DNA of 64,000 nucleotides from a virus (Duplodnaviria; Caudoviricetes). The notes below the pieces were generated by a model. The model was not told the origin of the DNA and ran no database searches. It was given only the letters and a program-made list of their open reading frames with translations. How positions within the stretch are numbered: position 1 is the stretch's first letter; each line of letters starts with the position of its first letter. The position numbers and the translations under genes are program-made. The stretch lies in IMG/VR virus record IMGVR_UViG_3300029305_001452, positions 1-64,000 of that record, one strand, 5' to 3'. Positions 1 through 50,793 of the stretch are shown piece after piece.

Positions 1-424
1 AACTAGCAGCGAATCCGTCTTCTGCGGTACCTAGTTTTTCAATAGTGTACTCAGGAATAGAGATTTTTTCTTGTGCTGATACAAACAAGCCGTCTTCAAC
101 AACGACAAGAGCATTACCATCCTGAGTAGAAACAGCAACTCCAATAGACTTTCCGCCGTCTGTATTATCAACTATAGCAATAGAACCGTCTACTGGTTTT
201 AAGTTACTCAGACCACCGCCGGCAACAAGTTCGTCTAGTTTAATCTTATCTTCTGCGGACATTAAACCAGACACCATAGATGTGGCAGTTGCGCCAGATG
301 CAATTAGAGTATTACCCTTGTATAGTCTGTTAGTGTCTTCAATAAAATACAAGGCCAGACTATTCTTCTCGGTTAAAGCATCATATTTTGCTTGTGTACC
401 AAAATAAAATTTTACATTAGCCAT
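1..424 (-). CDS. Putative virion/tail fibre-associated protein, N-terminal part (runs off window)
   Basis: ATG at 424 after an AAAGGAG RBS; reads MANVKFYFGTQAKYDALTEKNSLALYFIED..GLMSAEDKIKLD; absent from the ORF track because truncated. Confidence 0.7.
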   Translation of the reverse strand, partial: MANVKFYFGTQAKYDALTEKNSLALYFIEDTNRLYKGNTLIASGATATSMVSGLMSAEDKIKLDELVAGGGLSNLKPVDGSIAIVDNTDGGKSIGVAVSTQDGNALVVVEDGLFVSAQEKISIPEYTIEKLGTAEDGFAAS

Positions 425-488
425 TTTTTCTCTCCTTTCAATAAAATTATTAATATATGGAAAGCTATCTTAGCCTAACCAACAAAGA

Positions 489-1223
489 TTATAGTGACTC
501 CCAAATATAATCGGAGTTCGATTCAACCCCGTCAATTTCAGACCATTCATCAAAAGGATTTAGGTCAACAGGCTTAGGATTTTCAAGGCCACCATTATTT
601 GTCCAAGAAAGAATTAAGTCTTCAGAAATATTAGGAATAAATGTTACACCATCGACATTGCCAACATAACCAGCGTCAATAACCTTTCCGTTGGTAAGAG
701 TGACAATTAAATGGCCGTCTGCATTAACTTCACAATTATCAATGCAAGGTGCTCCGTCACTAGGCAATTCAACACGATTGCCAACCAACTCTCCGTTTGC
801 AACAAGTTGTATATATTTACCATCCTCATCATAATAAATATCATCTGCTTTATTTTCATTAAGATTTTCTAGCATAATATCAATCTGAGTAAACTTTTCC
901 TCAATTTCTTCATTTTGATCAGAAATATAGTCGCTTGGCATTGGGCGCTTAACAACCGCAAACTTTACAGATTTTACGGTGGCACCATTAGTGTAAGCAT
1001 ATACAACTAAATTTCTAGGTAGCTTTAATAAGTCACTTGGAACATTACAAATTCTAATTCCATCATTATCCACATATACATCTTTCTTAATTGAATGAGT
1101 CATATTTCTGTTTGAAAAATGGACTTCGTCAATAGACTCATCAAGAACAATTAACTTCTGCCTAGTGTCCCATTGCCAAAAGTTTGTACGTCCATCATAT
1201 ATTTTAAATATGTTTTGTGGCAC
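489..1223 (-). CDS. Putative tail/baseplate-associated structural protein
   Basis: AGGAGG RBS; FWQWD N-terminus and LSWTNNGGLENP segment typical of phage tail-fibre-region proteins. Confidence 0.55.
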   Translation of the reverse strand: MPQNIFKIYDGRTNFWQWDTRQKLIVLDESIDEVHFSNRNMTHSIKKDVYVDNDGIRICNVPSDLLKLPRNLVVYAYTNGATVKSVKFAVVKRPMPSDYISDQNEEIEEKFTQIDIMLENLNENKADDIYYDEDGKYIQLVANGELVGNRVELPSDGAPCIDNCEVNADGHLIVTLTNGKVIDAGYVGNVDGVTFIPNISEDLILSWTNNGGLENPKPVDLNPFDEWSEIDGVESNSDYIWESL

Positions 1224-1279
1224 TTTCGCACCTCCTTTTTAATATTGATATAAATCAATATCTTTAACTTTTTTGATAA

Positions 1280-3001
1280 TTAATCTCCATATAATTCCCA
1301 AGTTTCACCATTTCCAATATAGGGAACATACGCTTCATAACTAGAGCCATTACCGATATAAACGACATAAGTATCAAATGTACTATCGTTACCAATTGAA
1401 ACGCCACGAATTCTTGCAGTTGAACTTATAAGTGTATCTCCAGAAACAGTAAGCGTATTACCAGATATAAATTCCTCACCGTTTACATTATGAGCAATAA
1501 CCTTATAGCCATCAATTGCCCCAAATTCAATGGTTAAAACATCTCCATTTTTTACTTTTGCTCCGTTTGAAATAGCTGTTCCATTTTTTAAAACGCTAAT
1601 TATTGAACCAGCTCCAGCAGAAGTGGTAAGCAAAAATTCACTCAAATTCGCAGAAGAAACAATGGTCACATTTCCAGAGACAGTGTGCGTTCTTCCAGAT
1701 GTGAAATTAGAGCCATTAACCTTTAATGAAGACAATTGGTGTCCGTCTGTAGCATTTGCAGTTATGGTTAACACATCTCCATATGTAATAGTTGCTCCGT
1801 TAGATAAGGTTGTAGAGCCTCGTTTAACCGTAATATCTGTGTCTGAGCCAGCAGAAATGGTGAGTGTAAATGTATCAAGTTCAGCACTAACTGTGATAGT
1901 ACGGTTTGAGTTCATAGTCCAAGTGGTCGTATCGGTCTTTGACGAAGATTCATCTATAGCCCATGAACCTCCAGTAGAGCCATCTGCATAATTTCCTGCA
2001 TATCCCGTTAAACGATAACCGGTCGAAGCAGTCGCAGTGGTTGTTGCTTTTGTGCCGTATTCATAAGTTCCGCCGCCAGTAAACGAGGCAACACCAGTGC
2101 CTTTTTTAAGGGTTAATGTATACTTATTTTTCGTAGCAGTAGCTTTAAATGTAGTATTGGCAGTAATAGTAACATTTCCATTACTATGTGATTGCGAAGC
2201 CTTAGTATATCCAGTACTATAACTAAAGCTAACCGAAAGAACAGTTCCGTGGTTCACTTTTGTACCACTAGAAATCGTTGTACTGCCATTCTTAACGGTG
2301 ATACTTGTGCCAGTTCCAGCTGAAATAGTAATCGTATATTGTTTAATTGTTGTTGTTGCGGACACTGTTACATTTCCTTTTACTGTGTGCGTATTGCCAG
2401 ATGTAAATGTGCTACTATTAACCTTTAATGTAGGAGTGTTATAACCAGTTGATGCACTCGCTGAAATAGTTAGTACATCTCCGTAAGTAATAGACGCACC
2501 ATTTGAAAGCGTTGTGCTTCCTCTCTTAACCGATATTGTAGTGCCAGTTCCTTGAGAAATTGACAACTTAAAGGTTCGATTGATTTTTGTCAGTGTAACA
2601 GTCTTAGAATTAGAGGCGCTCCAATATGCGCCACTAACATTTCGTTTATATTCCTTAACCGACGCAGAAATTACAATAGACTTGCTACCGTCTGCATCGT
2701 GGGCAACATTGACTGAACCAAGCGCTCCGCTAACAGTAACCGGCGTATTTAATGCGCCAACATAAACACTATGTGTACCATCATGACTGCTCATGGATAC
2801 AGCCGCAGAACCATTTATAGTTATAGTTCCATCTAAATAGCGCTCACCAGTAATCCAAGCACTTTGAATAACTTCCATTTTCGTAATTGCTACATTGGAA
2901 GTATTCGTTGCGGCGTCATATGTTTCTGAATAGTAAATATTAAGAGTAGCACCATAGCTTGTGTCTTTTAATACTAGAGTGCCAGTTATACCTTGTGCCA
3001 T
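1280..3001 (-). CDS. Ser/Thr-rich virion protein with tandem beta-sandwich (InlB B-repeat/Ig-like) domains, putative adhesin
   Basis: About five ~75-aa repeats (xTLTISAGTGTxITVKxGSTTLSNGAxITYGDVLTI...V.GNVTV); lies in the tail region. Confidence 0.7.
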   Translation of the reverse strand: MAQGITGTLVLKDTSYGATLNIYYSETYDAATNTSNVAITKMEVIQSAWITGERYLDGTITINGSAAVSMSSHDGTHSVYVGALNTPVTVSGALGSVNVAHDADGSKSIVISASVKEYKRNVSGAYWSASNSKTVTLTKINRTFKLSISQGTGTTISVKRGSTTLSNGASITYGDVLTISASASTGYNTPTLKVNSSTFTSGNTHTVKGNVTVSATTTIKQYTITISAGTGTSITVKNGSTTISSGTKVNHGTVLSVSFSYSTGYTKASQSHSNGNVTITANTTFKATATKNKYTLTLKKGTGVASFTGGGTYEYGTKATTTATASTGYRLTGYAGNYADGSTGGSWAIDESSSKTDTTTWTMNSNRTITVSAELDTFTLTISAGSDTDITVKRGSTTLSNGATITYGDVLTITANATDGHQLSSLKVNGSNFTSGRTHTVSGNVTIVSSANLSEFLLTTSAGAGSIISVLKNGTAISNGAKVKNGDVLTIEFGAIDGYKVIAHNVNGEEFISGNTLTVSGDTLISSTARIRGVSIGNDSTFDTYVVYIGNGSSYEAYVPYIGNGETWELYGD

Positions 3002-3234
3002 TAGCCACTCACCTTCTTAAAGAATATCGCACCTCTAGGCGCAGCAGATGGGAGGGAAGAACCATATAAGCTGTCATCTAAAATATTGGACGCAATTTTA
3101 GATTCCATATCTGCAATAATAGCATCTAATCCTCTTCCACTTTCATCACTAACAGCGCTAACTTTAGTTCTTGGGAAAAGAGCTTCTGTCTTTTCCTTAT
3201 CGGAATATAAAGTTTTGACTTTGCCAGCAGACAT
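3001..3234 (-). CDS. Small tail-fibre-associated protein
   Basis: LFPRTKVSAV and YGSSLPSAAPRGAIFFK segments; translationally coupled to neighbours. Confidence 0.55.
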   Translation of the reverse strand: MSAGKVKTLYSDKEKTEALFPRTKVSAVSDESGRGLDAIIADMESKIASNILDDSLYGSSLPSAAPRGAIFFKKVSG

Positions 3235-3362
3235 TACTCTTCACCTCTTTTTAAAATTTCTTTCGCTTGTTCTTCTGTAATAATACATTTAGTTACTGCA
3301 TCATTTACCATTTTTTCAGTCCAAAGACCTTGTTTATGCCATTTCATAATTTTTTCAAACAT
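3234..3362 (-). CDS. XkdX family protein
   Basis: 42 aa MFEKIMKWHKQGLWTEKMVNDAVTKCIITEEQAKEIL, the XkdX pattern; below the ORF-track cutoff. Confidence 0.85.
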   Translation of the reverse strand: MFEKIMKWHKQGLWTEKMVNDAVTKCIITEEQAKEILKRGEE

Positions 3363-3366
3363 ATTA

Positions 3367-3618
3367 TTACACCTCCAATAGAGTATCAGTCATCATAGCA
3401 GTGTATGTTATCTGAGACTCAATTCTATCAAGTTGAGTAGGAGATTCTATTTCAAACTCTCCGTCAACATTAATTTCTCCAATTGCTTCCTTTTCTGCGA
3501 TGGGCAGGTTTGCATCATACTGTGCTTTCGTATCGCAGATAATTTCCTTTTCACTAAAAACCTGTTCGCCATCAGGCTTTTCATAAGCCAAAAATTGATA
3601 TTTGATGATTTTTGCCAT
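3367..3618 (-). CDS. XkdW-like tail fibre assembly protein
   Basis: Between fibre gene and XkdX; C-terminal PTQLDRIESQITYTAMMTDTLLE. Confidence 0.6.
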   Translation of the reverse strand: MAKIIKYQFLAYEKPDGEQVFSEKEIICDTKAQYDANLPIAEKEAIGEINVDGEFEIESPTQLDRIESQITYTAMMTDTLLEV

Positions 3619-3632
3619 AGATGCTCACCCCT

Positions 3633-4487
3633 TTAGTCCGTGGATTTTGTGTACTTTATGGTTACATAGGCAGCATAATTATTCCAAGTTTCGGTGGTCT
3701 TAACAAACACATTCGTAGATGTCGCATAAATGTTAATCGTGCCAATGGAATCGGCATTCCATTGTGTCGGGAAGTAATATCTGCCGGAATGACCCCACAC
3801 CGCCACAAAGTTTTTACTATTGGAAATACCATGAGGGGTTTCAGATTTAGCATTACTGGGCAACATTCCAACGCTGATGCACTTTGCATACACAGGTTTC
3901 CCTTGATAACGCTCCGTGGTTCTGTATTCCACGCCCACTTCCATAGGTGGGTTTTGCCACTCTAATGGCTTCCATGCGCCCGAAAACTTTACTTTGAAAA
4001 TCAACGAGCCTGTCAAGTTGGCAGACCATGCCTTGATGCTACCGTTGTTTTGGGAAGACTTTGATAGAATGCCAAACCAACCATGAGAAGTTGCTGACGG
4101 ATAGCCAGTCCAGTAGACTAGTTTAGTAGTTGCACCACTCATGGCACTATAAACATCCTCTAACAAGGTTGTTAATTCATCATCAGTCTCAACTCTGGCG
4201 CTTTTCAAAGAAATAGCTGCGCCACCATAACCATACCCAGCAGATGCTTTACTATCTTCTAAAGCTTGTAATCCAGATGTTAAATCACTAACCAATGCAT
4301 ACTCATCTGGAGTTCTGCCACCGAAAGTATCTATGTTGATAACTTCTGAATAAATATCTTCGCCGTCTTCTAGTGCATAAACAGGTTCGTCCGCAACTGC
4401 AACAAACTCGTCCGCGTGCATTCCATCTAGGGTATCTGCATCACTGGATCCAAAAGACCCTAAAATTTGCAATTTTTTAGTACTCAA
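3633..4487 (-). CDS. Tail fibre/receptor-binding-like protein
   Basis: DADTLDG motif; WQNPPMEVGVEYRTTERYQGKPVY and C-terminal YTK typical of clostridial phage fibre tips. Confidence 0.65.
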   Translation of the reverse strand: MSTKKLQILGSFGSSDADTLDGMHADEFVAVADEPVYALEDGEDIYSEVINIDTFGGRTPDEYALVSDLTSGLQALEDSKASAGYGYGGAAISLKSARVETDDELTTLLEDVYSAMSGATTKLVYWTGYPSATSHGWFGILSKSSQNNGSIKAWSANLTGSLIFKVKFSGAWKPLEWQNPPMEVGVEYRTTERYQGKPVYAKCISVGMLPSNAKSETPHGISNSKNFVAVWGHSGRYYFPTQWNADSIGTINIYATSTNVFVKTTETWNNYAAYVTIKYTKSTD

Positions 4488-4562
4488 TTAAATCACTTCC
4501 TTTATAAAAATGATCGTTTAATATTTTTAAGCGCTATAAATATAGCACTTTTATTTTTCGTT

Positions 4563-4787
4563 TTAATTTAATTCGTGTGCATCCCATAGTTCTTTTGCTT
4601 TACGTGTTTCTGGACACTTCTTAAATACAAAAACCATGGAATCTTCTCGTTTAGTGCCCGTATAAAGAATATCTAAAAAATATTCTGGACCAAGGTATGA
4701 CAAATAACGCTTTGCCTGTAGCATATTTGGAATATAAATACAATTCGCAGCGTCATATACCTTCTGAGTAATTGGAGACTTTACCAA
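4563..4787 (-). CDS. Small conserved phage protein (DUF5659-like)
   Basis: I.N..QA..Y and MVFVF pattern; GGAGG RBS. Confidence 0.5.
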   Translation of the reverse strand: MVKSPITQKVYDAANCIYIPNMLQAKRYLSYLGPEYFLDILYTGTKREDSMVFVFKKCPETRKAKELWDAHELN

Positions 4788-4810
4788 TTCCTTTTCCTCC
4801 TTTTTTGCAT

Positions 4811-4858
4811 AAAAAAATAAGGAGCTAGGCTTCGTTGTATGAAGTATAGCTCCTTATT
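4811..4858 (-). terminator. Intrinsic terminator
   Basis: AATAAGGAGCTA..TAGCTCCTTATT inverted repeat followed by a T run on the minus strand. Confidence 0.7.
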
Positions 4859-5264
4859 CATTTTCTTGTTTAACTACTTCATGTGTGTGTTTCTTCGCCT
4901 TGCGAGGAGTTACTTCTACAATAACTTCGTCTTCGGCAACTTCTTTAATCTCTGCATCTACAATCGCAACAATTGGTTCTTCTTCAATAATAACTTCCTC
5001 AACTTTAAATAAGTTGGATAAAGTATTTTGCACAGATGGTCTAAAGTTTAGTTTGTTAGATAGATCACACTTTTCAATTGCGGATTGAGCTTCTTCTTTA
5101 GTAAGCATTTCCATATTGAAACGGGTGCAAATATCAAAAATATCTTTGCAATTCTCTGAGTGGAATTCTGCCATCCAAACTGGCTTAGTGCGATCGTTGG
5201 TGCAGGTGGGGCAGTATTTATAAGACTCGCCACATAAATAGCATTCACGTGATTTACGTCCCAT
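4854..5264 (-). CDS. Hypothetical protein with N-terminal Zn finger
   Basis: CYLC..YKYCPTC..HSENC; start moved to MGRKS after an AAGGAG RBS. Confidence 0.7.
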   Translation of the reverse strand: MGRKSRECYLCGESYKYCPTCTNDRTKPVWMAEFHSENCKDIFDICTRFNMEMLTKEEAQSAIEKCDLSNKLNFRPSVQNTLSNLFKVEEVIIEEEPIVAIVDAEIKEVAEDEVIVEVTPRKAKKHTHEVVKQENE

Positions 5265-5289
5265 AGGGTTCACGCTCCTTTCGTAAATA

Positions 5290-5320
5290 AAAAATGAGCT
5301 ACCGTGAGGGTGGCTCATTT
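5290..5320 (-). terminator. Intrinsic terminator after endonuclease gene
   Basis: AAATGAGCTACC/GGTGGCTCATTT hairpin plus T run on the minus strand. Confidence 0.55.
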
Positions 5321-6490
5321 GTTGAGGATCGAGTTAATTTTATTAAGAATTAATTCTTCCATTTTATTGAATTCATAATACCAAATATCTAAACAATGTA
5401 TATTATTTCGTTTTAAATAATCTCTTTTTATTTTATCATGATAAATTTGTTTTTCAAATTTTTCTTTTCCACCAAACATATCAACAGGGTGTTCGTGCTG
5501 CTCACCCATAATTTCTACAATAAGATTGTAATCTGGAAGATAAAAATCAAATGGGAGAGTATATTTATCACGACAATCATCAAAGCGTTTTTGTGGTTCG
5601 TATTTATACTTATATTTTTGGAAAATTGATTCTGCGGATAGTTCACCTTTACTCATAGATTCTTCAATATAACACGATAAACACTGATAACCACTTAAAA
5701 TATTTGTCCAATATGACCAATATGGTTGATGGTTTTCATTAGGACATTTAATTAATGCCTTTAGATATTTACAATCATCGTTGTTTGGCGTTTGTATATC
5801 TAACAACTTATAACCATAATAATGTTCTTCCAAATATTGTTGCATTGTATTTTTATTCCAATATCCATAAGGAACTCTTTTATGTCCATATTTATTTTCA
5901 TAACATCCATTACAAGAAAATCCAAACCTAGATAAATTAGAAATACGAACACTACATTCATAACCACATTCAGGACAAACTACATCAACATATTTTTCAC
6001 TACCAAATGTGTATTTATATGAGTCTTCTTTATATTTTAAATATTTAATTAAATCTGGCCTAGTAGTAGCAATGTCATTAATACCAACCATTACGGTTCT
6101 ATTTGAACAAACAGAACATTGGCTTCCACGCATTAATTTTCTTGGATCCGCACTCCATACATATCCGTCAATAGAACATTTAACTAAAATTCTTGTATCC
6201 ATATTGACATATTCTCCAATGACTTCAATGTTTGGATTAATATTTTTTAAATCTTCTACAAACTTATTATGAGATTTTGTTTGTTTTCTAGATTGCTTTT
6301 CATTACCACATTTCCTGCAACCATGTCCTCTAAGCATATTCTGTGGGAAAGCATCAAATTCAAAATCATGAATCAAACATTTAAAACGAATTTTTGTATT
6401 CATATTAATATATCTGCCAATAACTTTAATATCTGGCAAAACTAAACTTAATTCTTTTTCAAATTCCTCTTGTGTTTTTCTCTTTTTCAT
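5315..6490 (-). CDS. Free-standing homing endonuclease-like protein (Zn-ribbon repeats plus C-terminal Vsr-like/PD-(D/E)xK nuclease)
   Basis: Repeated I.VIG.Y.NM.T.I..KC..G..C..C units; C-terminal SKGE..LPFDFYLPDYNLIVEIMGEQH..D.IK; more AT-rich than the tail tube gene. Confidence 0.8.
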   Translation of the reverse strand: MKKRKTQEEFEKELSLVLPDIKVIGRYINMNTKIRFKCLIHDFEFDAFPQNMLRGHGCRKCGNEKQSRKQTKSHNKFVEDLKNINPNIEVIGEYVNMDTRILVKCSIDGYVWSADPRKLMRGSQCSVCSNRTVMVGINDIATTRPDLIKYLKYKEDSYKYTFGSEKYVDVVCPECGYECSVRISNLSRFGFSCNGCYENKYGHKRVPYGYWNKNTMQQYLEEHYYGYKLLDIQTPNNDDCKYLKALIKCPNENHQPYWSYWTNILSGYQCLSCYIEESMSKGELSAESIFQKYKYKYEPQKRFDDCRDKYTLPFDFYLPDYNLIVEIMGEQHEHPVDMFGGKEKFEKQIYHDKIKRDYLKRNNIHCLDIWYYEFNKMEELILNKINSILNK

Positions 6491-6605
6491 GTGTCCTCAA
6501 CCTCACACTACTAAACTTTCCTCTTTTATAAAACATAAAGAGGGGAGGGAGAGGTTCCTCCCCTTATCAGTTCAAATAGCTAATTTAAACCTACTTTATG
6601 TATAT

Positions 6606-6634
6606 ATTATAACACATTAATTTCGTATTGTCAA
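6606..6634 (-). promoter_or_regulatory. Consensus sigma-A promoter for the endonuclease gene
   Basis: TTGACA-17 nt-TATAAT on the minus strand. Confidence 0.85.
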
Positions 6635-6644
6635 GTGTTATTAA

Positions 6645-7794
6645 TTATTCTGCATCACCAGGAATAATGATGGAGAATAATCTCTTCTCTTTATCACAGT
6701 CGCTAATCTTCAACTAAAGTCGTTAATTTTAGCCAGCACCATTACGTGCATCTTATACTTTCATATAAGGCGAGACTATATCATCACCCAGTTAAACTGG
6801 GGCATACCACTTCGAGCCACTTAGCTCTACGGCTTACGCCTAGTCGTTGAACCTTTTCCTATTCGGAACTTGGCTGCTGATTACCCATTGTTTAAATGTT
6901 TAGGATTTAACCTTGCATCATCCAATTAATTTTTTATACTTTCGTAGCATTCGCACTTAAGCATTTTTCATCTTTATGCTGTAGCTTAATTGGCTTTAGG
7001 GGTTTCCAGCAATTCAATATGTTTATCAAAACAGCTTATGCTGCTAGGGATCTATATTTCAAATCTTGCTGTGCTTTCATAGAGAAGGGATGGGTGCCAT
7101 CGGTAGCAATGCTCCAGTCGAAGTCGGGGCTTAGCTTAGCGTTGTTGAAGATAACATAAGCGTAAACTAGGTTGGTCTGATCACAAACGTCACAACCTAG
7201 TACTTCCATAACGAACTTGCAGCCAACAGGGAAGTTCTTAGCAGAGTTGACAACCTCAACAGCGTTTTCGGTTTCATACTCATACATAACGAACATCTCG
7301 GTACCAACCTTTACATCGGTGGGTAGAGAAATAGTTCTATCAGCGATAGAGAAAGCTTCTGCGGTAGCAGCATCTTCCTTACCATACTTAACACCAAAGG
7401 TGCTATCGTCATTTAGAGCATAGATCTCCTTAGGAGCAGCAACGGGAGTGTGCTTTAGGTCATACTTGCCGCCCTCAGCAACGGTGAAGCTCTCCATAGC
7501 AGGAGCAACAATCTTAGAACCAGCAGAAGCAACCTTCTTCTCAGTACCTAGCTGAGTAGCCATTAGGTTCATGTCGAATAGAGCGTTCTCAGCAGAGAAT
7601 TCTGCAGACTTAGCTCTGTAGAAAGTAGCAATAGGAGTACCCATTGCGTCAACAGCATCAGTAGACTCAGAAGCACAGTTTAGAGAAGCGTTCTGGATCT
7701 GGTTGATGGAGAATAGAACGGAATCATCCTTCTGGGATAGAGCAACACCACGGACAATTCTATCAATAACAAAGTTGTTTAAATCGAAAGCCAT
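6645..7794 (-). CDS. Major tail tube protein (SPbeta YomU position), spliced join(7794..7062,6700..6645), 262 aa
   Basis: Follows head-tail genes; highly expressed codon pattern; removing the intron restores ..MKAQQD-Y-CDKEKRLFSIIIPGDAE*. Confidence 0.8.
6701..7061 (-). ncRNA. Group I intron (361 nt, no ORF) in tail tube gene
   Basis: Exon ends in U and intron ends in G; core elements in order: AAUUGCUGGAAA (P), AAUCAGCAG (Q), UUCAACGACUA (R), GAUAUAGUC (S); excision restores the frame. Confidence 0.92.
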
Positions 7795-24300: not shown

Positions 24301-27300
24301 TCATTTCACCTCCAGCTCTAACACTTTTCATAGTAAATTTAAACCCGCCGTAACTAAATTCTCCATTTACATCTTGTTCGGGATAAGTATAACAACCAGA
24401 CTTTGCAATAAGTTTTTCCACAATCACATCTCCACATAAGTTCCATACAATACTAACATCGATACCATCTTTATAACAAATATCAAGCAGCATTTCACAT
24501 AAAATATATTTATTTTGACAAATTGAGAAACAAGTTTCCTCTAACTCTGCATTAAGTTTAACAATCTGATCAGCAGCGCTCTCTTCTTCATCTTCATGCT
24601 CTACGAATTTTTTCTTGTTAATCTCACGTTTCTTCTGTCTATACGCTTCACACTTAAGCTTTATAAGCTCATAATCCTCTTGTGCATACTCAAGACAACT
24701 TTTATAAATTTCATAGTCGAAATTAACATTTTCAAACATGTCAACACCGTCGAATACATCTTCAACGGCCCAACAAATACGATTCATAGTAGAGGGTGAG
24801 ACATCAAGAGGTAGGCGTTTTTTATAAAAATCCAAGATTTTTTGCTCATTTTCTGGCAAATTACCATCATTTTTAAGTAAATCTCGTATATTTTTACCAG
24901 TTATACTTTGAATATGATCATCTGTATCACGAACAAATGCATCGTATTCTTGCTTTAAAGTGGTGTAGTTATAGCCAAAAAAGTATGGTTTTTTGAATGC
25001 ACATAGCTGTTGATTTAGTGTTTTTTGTTCTATAATTTCAGCAGAATCGTCATTTCTTACTATATTTTCTTTAAAAATATACCAACTTTTAGGCATCGGG
25101 TTGGGTAAAATTCCCTTAGCTTTCCTTTATACCCTCGGTTTCCCGATATTTTAGTAGGGGAGTAGACTATATCTTCAACTCATAACGAGTTGTGTGGCAC
25201 TTCCAAATGAGGAGTTTCACCTCAAATGTACTTCCTTACGGAATAGTCGTTTGACGTTCTTGCTTACGCAAGCTTCGCACTGGATTAACATATGTGTGTT
25301 TATTTTATGGAACTTGTTTCCATCTTTTATAATTGCAAATATCATTAATGCATTGAGGAGTAACGTTATATTTTCTTGAAATTTCAGAATAGTTGAAACC
25401 ATCTCTATGTAATTTTCTAATTTCTACAACATCATCTACACAAAGCTTCTTAGGATTCTTCTCATAATATTTTTGTTGAGCCTGTTGTATGTTTTTACGA
25501 CCATCTTCACTCATTGGTGCATACTTCATTCCAGTATGAGTTTCGGACATCTTTGCTCTTGTCTCATCTGATGCTTTTCTTCCTATGCCGTTAATTCTAT
25601 TTTTCTCACCTATTTTTCTTTTTGTCTCATCGGATAAATGTTTTCCAAGGTTATATCCTTCATCTCCGCCGTCGTGAATATTATAAGCAAGTCCCATATC
25701 TTTATATAATTTAATATAATATTTTTCTCGATCACTTAATTCACCAACGCTGCAATCTTCAATAACTATAAACTCGAAATTTTCTTGTTTATATTTATCC
25801 CATGCACTTTGTAAATGCGGATTATCGTGTTTACCATTGTTTAATAAAGAACGATGCGAATCCCATCTATCTCCAAAATTCATTCCAGTTTTACCAACAT
25901 AAATTTTACCATTAACTAAATTTCTAATACCATAAATACCGATTCTAGAATAAATATTATCTTCACGTTTAACCATATTACTCCTCCTTTCTTAATTAAT
26001 TTTGTATTGTTAACACACACTTAGTTTTTCCCAGTTAGCTAACTCGTTAACACTCATTTCCTAATGCTACTTTACGTCGAGTTAACACCCTATATTTATA
26101 GGTTCACCACATTATTCGATGCATGTCACCATGCAAAGCGACTGTAATTCAATCGATTTCTTCCTGTTGAAGAGCTTGCCCGCACTGAGTTCTATATCTT
26201 AAAATCTCATATTCACGACTTCCTGGCTCATAATTTGACATTAAAGAAGTGATTGCTGTGATTCTGTTAGTTATACTACCAATCTTACTACCAAATCCAT
26301 TCTTATTTGCTTTAATTACATCTGCCTCAGTAACCACTTTCCTCGAAGCATTGTACTGAATGCAGTTTAGTGCAGGCAAATTCTTCTGGTTCTTAAGTAG
26401 TGGAGCGTTGTCAGTAGTGAAGAGTAGATCTCCGTCAAAATCAAAACCATTAAGAGCCATTGGCATTGTATCCCAAGCATTCACAACAGCCACTGTATCC
26501 ATATATTTAAACCAGTATTCTGCTTTATCATCATAGCAGATATCCTGAGAAACCAACGAATGTTCGTTAGACATTGGTGCTCTAGCACACATTACACGCT
26601 TCACACCACAATCTTTCCAGTATTTACTGTAAATTTCGCCAGCTTTTAGTAATCCATGCACCTCTAAACCAAACATACTCTCACATAGAGCATATATGTC
26701 TCCAGAAATAATTTGGAAGTTACCACTTACATCAAGCACACCAATCTTGGCCTCTCTAATACGTTTGTTAATCATTTTCTTAATTCTATTGCGAATATAT
26801 GGGTCATTTATAGTCTCTGAATTAGCCATAAGCGCTCTTGCAGCAGCATCCACATACTGAATATTCTCTGCTTTTAAGTTCTTACCACATAAATACACAA
26901 TACTTTTTCTAGGATCTAAGCCAATAGTATCCTTAATTTCATTCACAGTAGGAGAGATAAGCTCCTGAATATCTTCGTCAGACAAGTTTAAAGACTGTAT
27001 AAACTGGTAATTTAACTGTCTTACGGTATCAACTTCATGCGGTGCGGTCTTAGCAACTCTAATTGTATACTTATTTTCTAGACACTTATTATAATAATCT
27101 TCCCATGAATCATAACAAGCCCAAAGTTTCAACTGGCTCTCAGTAATAATTAGTTCGGAATCTCTAATATCTCTCTGTTGTCCCCAAATATCAGTAATTA
27201 AATACTTTTCAGGGCAATCATCGGAAGCACCAACAACTTCTTCTGCAAACTTTATGTAGTCAAAAGTAAATGTCATACCTTTAGTCCATGCACAACGAAG

Positions 27301-50382: not shown

Positions 50383-50793
50383 ATGAGCGTATCAAGAGTC
50401 GACAAAAAGAAAGAAGCCATAAAAAGAATGGAGGTGTTAGACATCTATTCAGAAACTATAAGGCAATTCGAGTATGAGGGTCTTATAAGTTATAGTGAGC
50501 CACCGCTTGGTACAAACTACTGGCTGACAGAAGAGCGAAGAGAGATCGTGAAGAAGTTTGAAGAAGAACATAACGCACTTGTATACTTCGCAGCTACTTC
50601 TTATACGGAGTTTGGTAGATTGGATGCGTTCTTATATGTGTCCGACTACGAGGATGAATGGAAGGAAGACATGGAATATCTGAAAGATGGATATGTATAC
50701 GCATATGTATACAACTATGACTGTCCTGAGTTTTCTGAAATTGGTCTTGTAAGAGTTCAGCCGAGATTTGGCGGACTTGTAAGAATTGGTTAA
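50383..50793 (+). CDS. Conserved hypothetical phage protein
   Basis: FEEEHNALVY..LYVS....EW..YAYVYN..SEIG. Confidence 0.7.
   Translation: MSVSRVDKKKEAIKRMEVLDIYSETIRQFEYEGLISYSEPPLGTNYWLTEERREIVKKFEEEHNALVYFAATSYTEFGRLDAFLYVSDYEDEWKEDMEYLKDGYVYAYVYNYDCPEFSEIGLVRVQPRFGGLVRIG

Follow-up and report, generated by a model that had tools for sequence, protein, structure and literature searches.

A protein-less group I intron in a tail-tube gene and a neighbouring Vsr-like nuclease as a candidate collaborative homing pair in SPbeta-like gut phages

Described systems and the present locus

Collaborative homing, in which a free-standing endonuclease cuts the intron-less allele of a gene while the intron protects its own genome, was demonstrated with F-CphI and the psbA intron in the cyanophage S-PM2 (Zeng, Bonocora & Shub 2009) and also for a DNA polymerase intron in T3/T7-like phages (Bonocora & Shub 2009), as both studies are cited in PMC10448857 and PMC6083498. 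Here, I analyze a locus in an SPbeta-like phage. The analyzed stretch, hereafter the window, is the first 64 kb of the 139,972-base IMG/VR virus record IMGVR_UViG_3300029305_001452. A group I intron lies in the tail-tube gene, and a predicted free-standing nuclease gene lies behind this gene. The tube gene, the intron, the spacer element, and the nuclease gene are all on the minus strand. It had been proposed from the DNA letters alone (hereafter the original prediction) that the nuclease cuts intron-less tube genes of related phages near the splice junction. In the present analysis, the locus is somewhat more probably than otherwise a linked selfish module, consisting of a protein-less group I intron and a free-standing Vsr/EDxHD-type homing endonuclease gene situated 154 nt behind the tube gene.

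The F-CphI system is the model proposed here for the window. In the accounts cited above, it likewise consists of a group I intron without an open reading frame (ORF) in a conserved phage gene and an adjoining free-standing homing endonuclease gene. In contrast, cleavage at the intron insertion site was shown at the bench for F-CphI, whereas the pair in the window is known from its sequence. By the same accounts, F-CphI has an Endo VII-type catalytic motif and not the Vsr fold, and its host gene psbA is not a structural gene.

The closest published layout is that of the Kayvirus phage 812, shared by A3R, 676Z, Fi200W, and P4W, in which the tail-tube gene orf103 has two non-coding group I introns and orf104 encodes a 'putative intron nuclease' (Botka et al. 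2019, PMC6445280). These introns and the nuclease are jointly absent from phage K and from 812a-derived mutants (PMC6445280). The likeness lies in a tube gene with ORF-less introns, then a terminator, a promoter, and a free-standing nuclease gene. The two nucleases also have in common the Vsr-type core motif (I/V)E-x-MGEQH (37% over 62 amino acids), and the sharing is limited to this core. On the other hand, phage 812 is a Herelleviridae myovirus with two introns in its tube gene, while the window belongs to an SPbeta-like phage with one intron in a YomU-type tube gene, and the tube proteins are unrelated. The catalytic domain of Orf104 is in the middle of the protein and zinc modules are absent, whereas in the nuclease of the window, zinc modules at the N-terminus precede a catalytic domain at the C-terminus. 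The tail-tube gene orf142 of phage Twort is mentioned in PMC11878797 as having three introns.

Three other systems resemble the locus in part. In phage T4, MobE and the nrdB intron with the defunct I-TevIII undergo trans homing by co-conversion (Wilson & Edgell 2009, PMC2790892). As in the window, a free-standing nuclease adjoins an intron without a working endonuclease. However, MobE is an HNH enzyme and its cut is away from the intron insertion site, which makes it the model of the hitch-hiking explanation weighed below. In phage ICP1, for which 'HEG islands' are also described, collaborative homing was proposed for the terL intron and a neighbouring T5orf172 nuclease (Barth et al. 2023, PMC10448857; PMC6083498), and nuclease turnover was raised in PMC10448857 as an alternative origin of such layouts. 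There too, an ORF-less intron in an essential late gene lies next to a free-standing nuclease gene, and nucleases turn over at a fixed locus while the splice junctions stay. The nuclease family, the gene, and the host are different. The third system is I-Bth0305I, the prototype of the EDxHD (Vsr-like) homing endonucleases (Taylor et al. 2011, PMC3239194; PDB 3R3P). Like the nuclease of the window, of whose C-terminal domain it is the best structural match, it is a multidomain enzyme of a Firmicutes phage tied to a group I intron. In contrast, I-Bth0305I is encoded within its intron, in recA, while the gene in the window is free-standing. Its N-terminal DNA-binding part is unlike the four zinc modules found here, and the sequence of the window nuclease has no match to 3R3P.

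The tail-tube intron and the nuclease

The tail-tube gene is composed of exon 1 (7062..7794; codons 1-244 and the first base of Tyr245), an ORF-less group I intron of 361 nt (6701..7061), and exon 2 (6645..6700; the last two bases of Tyr245 to Glu262, plus the stop codon TAA at 6647-6645). An ORF of 252 amino acids (7794..7036) is the first tube exon running on into the intron. Homologues of the tube protein carry Pfam PF27173 YomU_Tube, the PHROG match is 2729 (virion structural protein), and the Pfam families YomU_Tube, YomV, and YomW are present in homologues of the neighbouring genes. When position 7062 is joined to 6700, the product is a 262-residue protein that aligns from residue 1 to 262 with uninterrupted homologues (L005, L006, L010, and others). 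In blastn comparisons with the intron-less relatives L005 and L013, the alignments break at 7062|6700, and the subject coordinates are gapless there. Because the protein alignment and the blastn breakpoints agree, the intron was placed at 7061..6701 and exon 2, which is contiguous with exon 1 in the intron-less homologues, at 6700..6645. The splice junction CAAGATT|ACTGTGAT is in phase 1 of Tyr245, and the protein sequence ...AQQD|Y|CDKEKRLFSIIIPGDAE runs unbroken in intron-less homologues. The intron lies in the stretch of the last 19 codons of the tube gene.

The Rfam group I intron model RF00028 matches positions 7071..6752 on the minus strand over its full length (1-253) with 74.9 bits, the Rfam cut-off being 50. 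Ten introns at the same site (after codon 244) were aligned, and compensatory changes were found in 53 of the 101 pairs of the consensus fold. The U.G pair formed in P1 by the last exon base (alignment columns 9-46) is invariant in all ten introns. The P1 pair beside it covaries with the wobble base of the exon (GAT, GAG, GAA), and the intron ends with G (...TTAGCG). I take the intron to be an intact ribozyme under selection, judging from this covariation. No ORF of 40 or more amino acids exists on its coding strand, the longest having 31 amino acids. Thus, the original prediction was right that the intron encodes no protein, and the junction that it gave is identical to the boundaries obtained from intron-less relatives. 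A metatranscriptome contig joins 6690 in exon 2 to 7062 with 10 diverged letters, which are those of a relative; this fits either spliced RNA or an intron-less relative. The three bovine-gut metatranscriptome runs contained relatives only, and uncovered parts of the window carry no meaning. A 5-bp inverted repeat across the spliced junction (CACAG-N8-CTGTG) was set aside, being largely forced by the conserved Gln-Gln-Asp-Tyr-Cys codons. Elsewhere in the window, at 25143-25348 (minus), there is a weak second match to a group I intron, with 22.3 bits and thus under the cut-off.

The nuclease gene (5315..6490) encodes 391 amino acids, and its ATG lies 154 nt after the tube stop codon, where 155 nt had been predicted. 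The protein has four Cys-rich modules of the treble-clef type followed by a C-terminal domain with the Vsr/EDxHD fold (residues about 280-390). Pfam matches are the DUF4379 treble clef zinc finger and a CapR-type module, while PHROG matches are 559, at 3e-82, and 9084 ('homing endonuclease'). The invariant cysteines fall into four groups: C38/C58/C61, C105/C125/C128, C193/C196, and C249/C270/C273. The AlphaFold model has a mean pLDDT of 87 and a pTM of 0.41, a low value that fits modules on a string. For residues 280-390, the best structural match is the catalytic domain of I-Bth0305I (3r3p_A; Z 12.1, rmsd 2.7 A, 94/97 residues), followed by E. coli Vsr (1cw0_A; Z 11.5) and a DUF559-type protein (3hrl; Z 10.7). 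The Foldseek probability is 1.00 for all three. These nucleases were found by fold comparison alone, since sequence searches of the PDB, with the single sequence and with a profile, gave no nuclease, 3R3P included. The zinc modules and the Vsr-like domain bear out the original description of a 'Zn-ribbon/Vsr-like nuclease'.

In 26 homologues, D315, E326, D352, and K355 are invariant, and E283 and H332 are nearly so. The spacing of these residues is Vsr-like and resembles that of the composite EDxHD motif (PMC3239194). Among nine intact orthologues, dN/dS ranges from 0.11 to 0.38 with saturated synonymous sites. The nuclease is thus under purifying selection, and the enzyme looks active. The gene is AT-rich, unlike the flanking late genes, and its presence is patchy: it is inserted between conserved genes and is absent at the same spot in close relatives. 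At the place of the nuclease gene, L005, whose upstream protein is 94% identical, has a spacer of 87 nt. It is very probable that the protein is a free-standing homing endonuclease. The same genome has, outside the window (G000:C1:135333-135704, minus; L002:1477-2211), a 244-residue ORF whose C-terminal domain shares 43% identity with nuclease residues 265-385, and a group I intron was not detected in its vicinity.

Pairing of intron and nuclease among relatives

Do the intron and the nuclease belong together in related phages, as the original prediction asked? I collected 43 related tube loci from IMG/VR and reached another 11 loci through orthologues of the nuclease. In these loci, the tube gene has about 11 intron positions, after codons 11, 55, 74, 202, 209, 212, 228, 232, 239, 244, and 252. 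Rfam, or an nhmmer profile made with the site-244 introns, confirmed many of them. The gathering threshold of Rfam missed clearly homologous introns (L058, L034, L008), which the profile recovered. Eight lineages have nothing in the slot that separates the tube gene from the next gene. The remaining ones have nucleases there, which belong to no fewer than seven lineages and to three catalytic families (Vsr-like, HNH, and GIY-YIG). Type A is the nuclease of the window. Types B, C, E, and F have zinc modules and a similar C-terminal domain at 25-45% identity, type D has zinc modules and an HNH domain, and type G is a GIY-YIG nuclease. Taken together, these loci indicate that the tube 3' end and the slot behind it are a recombination hotspot of SPbeta-like gut phages.

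All eight lineages that have a type A nuclease with 60-80% identity to that of the window (the window itself, L048, L056-L060, and L065) also have a homologous codon-244 intron, and these introns are 77-93% identical to that of the window. Similarly, all three lineages with nuclease types E/F have a codon-252 intron (L008, L025, L024). Among the loci of the relatives, none of the type A nucleases was found next to a tube gene of at least 60% identity that is uninterrupted over codons 232-252. In L066, whose nuclease is 76% identical, the intron is at codon 252; the contig starts inside this intron, and codon 244 is outside it. In L061, whose nuclease is 56% identical, an unrelated intron-like insert follows codon 239, 15 nt upstream of the 244 junction, which is intact. 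The insert was matched by neither Rfam nor the nhmmer profile, but it has a core-like sequence and a terminal G, by which I judge it to be a group I intron.

On a tree of the upstream gene, the pair of type A nuclease and codon-244 intron occurs at no fewer than six separate places, each beside close relatives without the pair. The window is sister to L005, which has neither element. The upstream protein of L058 is identical to those of L018 (type B; introns 209 and 244) and L024 (type F; introns 212, 232, and 252), and L034, with intron 252 and no nuclease, is sister to this group. L018 and L058 have 95% identical backbones and 99% identical introns, while their nucleases are unrelated; the point of the switch is about 75 nt ahead of the nuclease ATG. 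The scatter on the tree and this switch show that the cassettes are exchanged often and that intron and nuclease are separable. A count over the distinct lineages of relatives in the unbiased, tube-based sample revealed a weak association between any slot nuclease and any intron in codons 200-262 (both in 5, nuclease only in 6, intron only in 3, neither in 8). The lineage-specific pairings alone stand out from this weak general association. Co-conversion tracts between the window and its nearest relatives were uninformative, the DNA identity being 77-83% throughout.

A functional tie between nuclease and intron is favoured because of these lineage-specific pairings (A with 244, E/F with 252) and because, despite recombination between the two elements, no type A nuclease lies by a similar tube gene uninterrupted in codons 232-252. 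Thus, collaborative homing, or trans homing, may be called the best reading of the locus, with slightly more for it than against it. During co-infection, the nuclease would break the DNA of nuclease-less relatives in or near the conserved tube 3' end (about codons 232-252). Repair from the carrier genome would then copy the nuclease gene and the nearby intron jointly, and the carrier would be protected since its intron splits the recognition sequence. Since I-Bth0305I has a footprint of about 60 bp (PMC3239194), a single long site could be interrupted by each of the introns spread over codons 232-252. Such a site would reconcile this reading with the variants that have introns at 232, 239, and 252. 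Carrier and potential target genomes seem to share one sample, because a faeces metagenome run (X1), from the probable source sample, has contigs identical to the window as well as a contig of an intron-less relative (an L020-like tube allele, joint 6695>7081).

Several observations weigh against collaborative homing. In the intron-less allele, no more than about 210 bp separate the intron site from the downstream nuclease ATG, so that tight linkage alone could yield the co-occurrence. The codon-244 intron exists without any nuclease in L033/L035 and L046 and beside type B, not type A, in L018/L019; likewise, L034 has the codon-252 intron and no nuclease. In L062, an A-like nuclease (62% and 78% identical in two parts, with a 120-residue insertion) adjoins the intact junction CAGGATT|ACTGTGATAAAGAG, and the sole nearby intron is after codon 232, 36 nt upstream. 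L063/L064 have an A-like nuclease without the first module behind an uninterrupted tube gene, which is 50% identical and differs from the site at many positions. Types B, C, D, and G fill the same slot beside intron-less tube genes, so that self-protection here does not in general require an intron. The rank orders of identity to the window differ between intron and nuclease (in L060, the intron is 89% identical and the nuclease 63%), and the two are therefore not strictly co-inherited. Finally, L056-L066 were obtained via the nuclease, which is a sample bias. The co-occurrence that the original prediction named as its check is found for the orthologues of at least 60% identity, 8 of 8 with the pair scattered on the tree, with the caveats that the intron also occurs without the nuclease and that diverged nucleases have other introns or none.

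It is possible, though I would not expect it, that the intron merely hitch-hikes. In this explanation, the nuclease cuts genomes that lack it close to where its own gene is inserted, either in the spacer after the terminator or at the beginning of the downstream gene, or else at a tube site that has nothing to do with the intron, and the ORF-less introns travel along in co-conversion tracts. MobE, which mobilizes the defunct I-TevIII intron in T4 (PMC2790892), is a precedent. The short distance to the nuclease ATG, the intact 244 junction of L062, and the incongruent identities all speak for hitch-hiking. So does the use of one slot by seven or more nuclease lineages, which come from three catalytic families and in many cases adjoin intron-less tube genes, and so does the concentration of 8 of the roughly 11 intron positions in the last 61 codons, nearest the slot. 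However, pure linkage does not predict that A pairs with 244 and E/F with 252. Intron and nuclease do recombine, as L018 and L058 indicate, yet type A was not seen beside a similar tube gene free of introns in codons 232-252. An improbable alternative is that the two elements are independent and share a hotspot, the intron owing its place to reverse splicing or old vertical descent and the nuclease having its target elsewhere, with co-occurrence reflecting common descent and sampling. The introns without the nuclease of the window (L033/L035, L046, L018) would fit this, as would the fact that most type A loci were obtained through the nuclease itself. Old descent would also be compatible with the site-244 introns, which are all homologous and whose most diverged copies belong to the most diverged phages. 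In contrast, the pair is scattered on the backbone tree, so that repeated joint gain or loss would be required. The nearest relative L005 has neither element, and the upstream gene of L058 equals that of L018, L024, and L034, which have other combinations. A role of the nuclease outside homing, such as degradation of host or competitor DNA or DNA repair, is very unlikely. Vsr-fold domains do occur in repair enzymes, and one source labels the homologues 'very-short-patch-repair endonuclease'. Against such a role, the gene is patchy at a fixed intergenic slot that is filled elsewhere by GIY-YIG or HNH homing genes, it is AT-rich unlike the flanking late genes, its nearest structure is a homing endonuclease, and family members lie in or beside introns.

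The spacer, the hotspot, and the wider family

The spacer between the tube gene and the nuclease gene contains a conserved unit. Its parts are, in order, a promoter-like sequence TTGACA-17-TATAAT with a TG extension (6634..6606), a 7-bp hairpin (6569..6591), a UGAUAAG linker, and a terminator-like element (6531..6564) made of a GC hairpin (6564..6541) and a T-run. The promoter matches 12 of 12 box positions and contains the phage-wide motif ACAATACGAAATTA. Compensatory changes were found in 5 of the 7 pairs of the first hairpin and in 11 of the 14 pairs of the whole unit in an alignment of 11 phages. The terminator, which lies between the promoter and the nuclease ATG, is conserved in position and is supported by covariation. 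The unit is kept after the tube gene in the nuclease-less relatives L013, L033, and L046 and is degenerate in L005 and L010. In all, it is present in the window phage and at least 10 relatives, with or without a nuclease behind it. The unit is a candidate for a small RNA of about 70 nt or for a transcription attenuator ahead of the tail-assembly genes.

The nuclease gene was inserted behind a pre-existing spacer element, because the unit from promoter to terminator also exists in nuclease-less relatives. The original prediction had given the nuclease a perfect sigma-A promoter of its own. The boxes are indeed perfect, but the promoter is not specific to the nuclease: it is kept in L013, L033, and L046, a terminator separates it from the ATG, and it carries a motif used across the phage. 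It is better regarded as a feature of the spacer between the tube gene and the next gene. Since the nuclease gene sits behind a conserved terminator, its expression would probably depend on read-through of this terminator and not on a promoter of its own.

The promoter includes the motif ACAATACAAAATTA. The window has 8 copies of this motif where 0.29 would be expected, and every copy is oriented in the direction of the genes. Written as TT-N-ACAATACAAAATTAAT, the copies are at 6618, 20241, 23379, 25997, and 37297 (minus) and at 50793, 59088, and 60489 (plus). Most of them lie 10-25 nt ahead of a ribosome-binding site and lack a -10 box. One copy precedes a GIY-YIG ORF within an RNA polymerase intron. 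The motif looks like a phage-specific promoter or operator.

Some relatives show further features of the hotspot. In L046 (1822-5672; IMGVR_UViG_3300045988_154382), a tube gene with about 790 nt of coding sequence is split after codons 11, 55, 74, 202, 228, and 244. Five of the inserts have a group I core, and the other (3256-3577) lacks it and is a putative intron. The first intron bears a GIY-YIG ORF. Such an intron density is unusual for a phage gene. In L061 (2400-3390), tandem group I cores occupy 2456-2806 and 3037-3322, within the interval from tube codon 209 to codon 220, and an exon for codons 210-219 was not detected. The gene may have a micro-exon or a twintron there, or it may be decayed. 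Slot nucleases were found in L006, L008, L013, L017, L020, L024, L025, L027, L032, and L036, and several of them share similar N-terminal zinc modules. This suggests domain shuffling of DNA-binding and catalytic parts.

The family of the nuclease extends well beyond this locus, with 384 matching stretches in IMG/VR. Its members are often associated with introns, which also counts in favour of the collaborative reading: in 29 of 80 family loci, the nuclease ORF follows the end of a complete group I core on the same strand at a distance of 40-130 nt, and Rfam confirmed the core in 5 of 13 family loci checked. Loci with a group I core plus a nuclease were seen among L068-L146 (e.g., L070:2114-3598 and L116:2121-3382) in several different host genes. 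In these distant members, the nuclease ORF may belong to the intron as part of a 3' extension or may follow a very short exon. Pfam gave nothing useful for the genes split by such intron-nuclease units (L070), and these have no counterpart in the window except for L143. Among cultured phages, 666 records have relatives of about 30% identity. They include the 'group I intron VSR homing endonuclease' that Kayvirus phiIPLA-RODI has in its terminase gene; a 'VSR homing endonuclease' is encoded by TerL introns of Kayvirus. At the DNA level, the similarity of cultured phages to the window is confined to the intron core, and no close cultured relative was found. Near-identical contigs come from animal faeces metagenomes, and relatives come from bovine gut samples.

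Such a selfish arrangement of an intron and a neighbouring nuclease has been described before in other phages, and specialists will not find it surprising in itself. The present locus is a new candidate example, from uncultured SPbeta-like gut phages, of the few described cases in which an intron without an endonuclease is mobilized by a neighbouring free-standing nuclease, and the intron is possibly used as a shield by that nuclease. What the locus adds is a hotspot unusually rich in material for comparison, where a single gene has about 11 intron positions and no fewer than seven nuclease lineages. I tentatively suggest that it forms a natural arms-race library, in which each nuclease lineage (A, E/F, D', and others; Vsr-like, HNH, or GIY-YIG) has its own target in the last 60 or so codons of the tube gene. 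Each ORF-less intron position (209, 232, 239, 244, 252, and others) would then have arisen as the matching immunity element, and L046 would have gained the five to six introns of its 790-nt gene in this way. Triplets of nuclease, target, and intron would be readable by comparison. The hotspot could serve to ask if phages recruit introns as an immunity to particular nucleases, and it is a source of nucleases combining zinc modules with a Vsr fold, which probably have long and distinct target sites.

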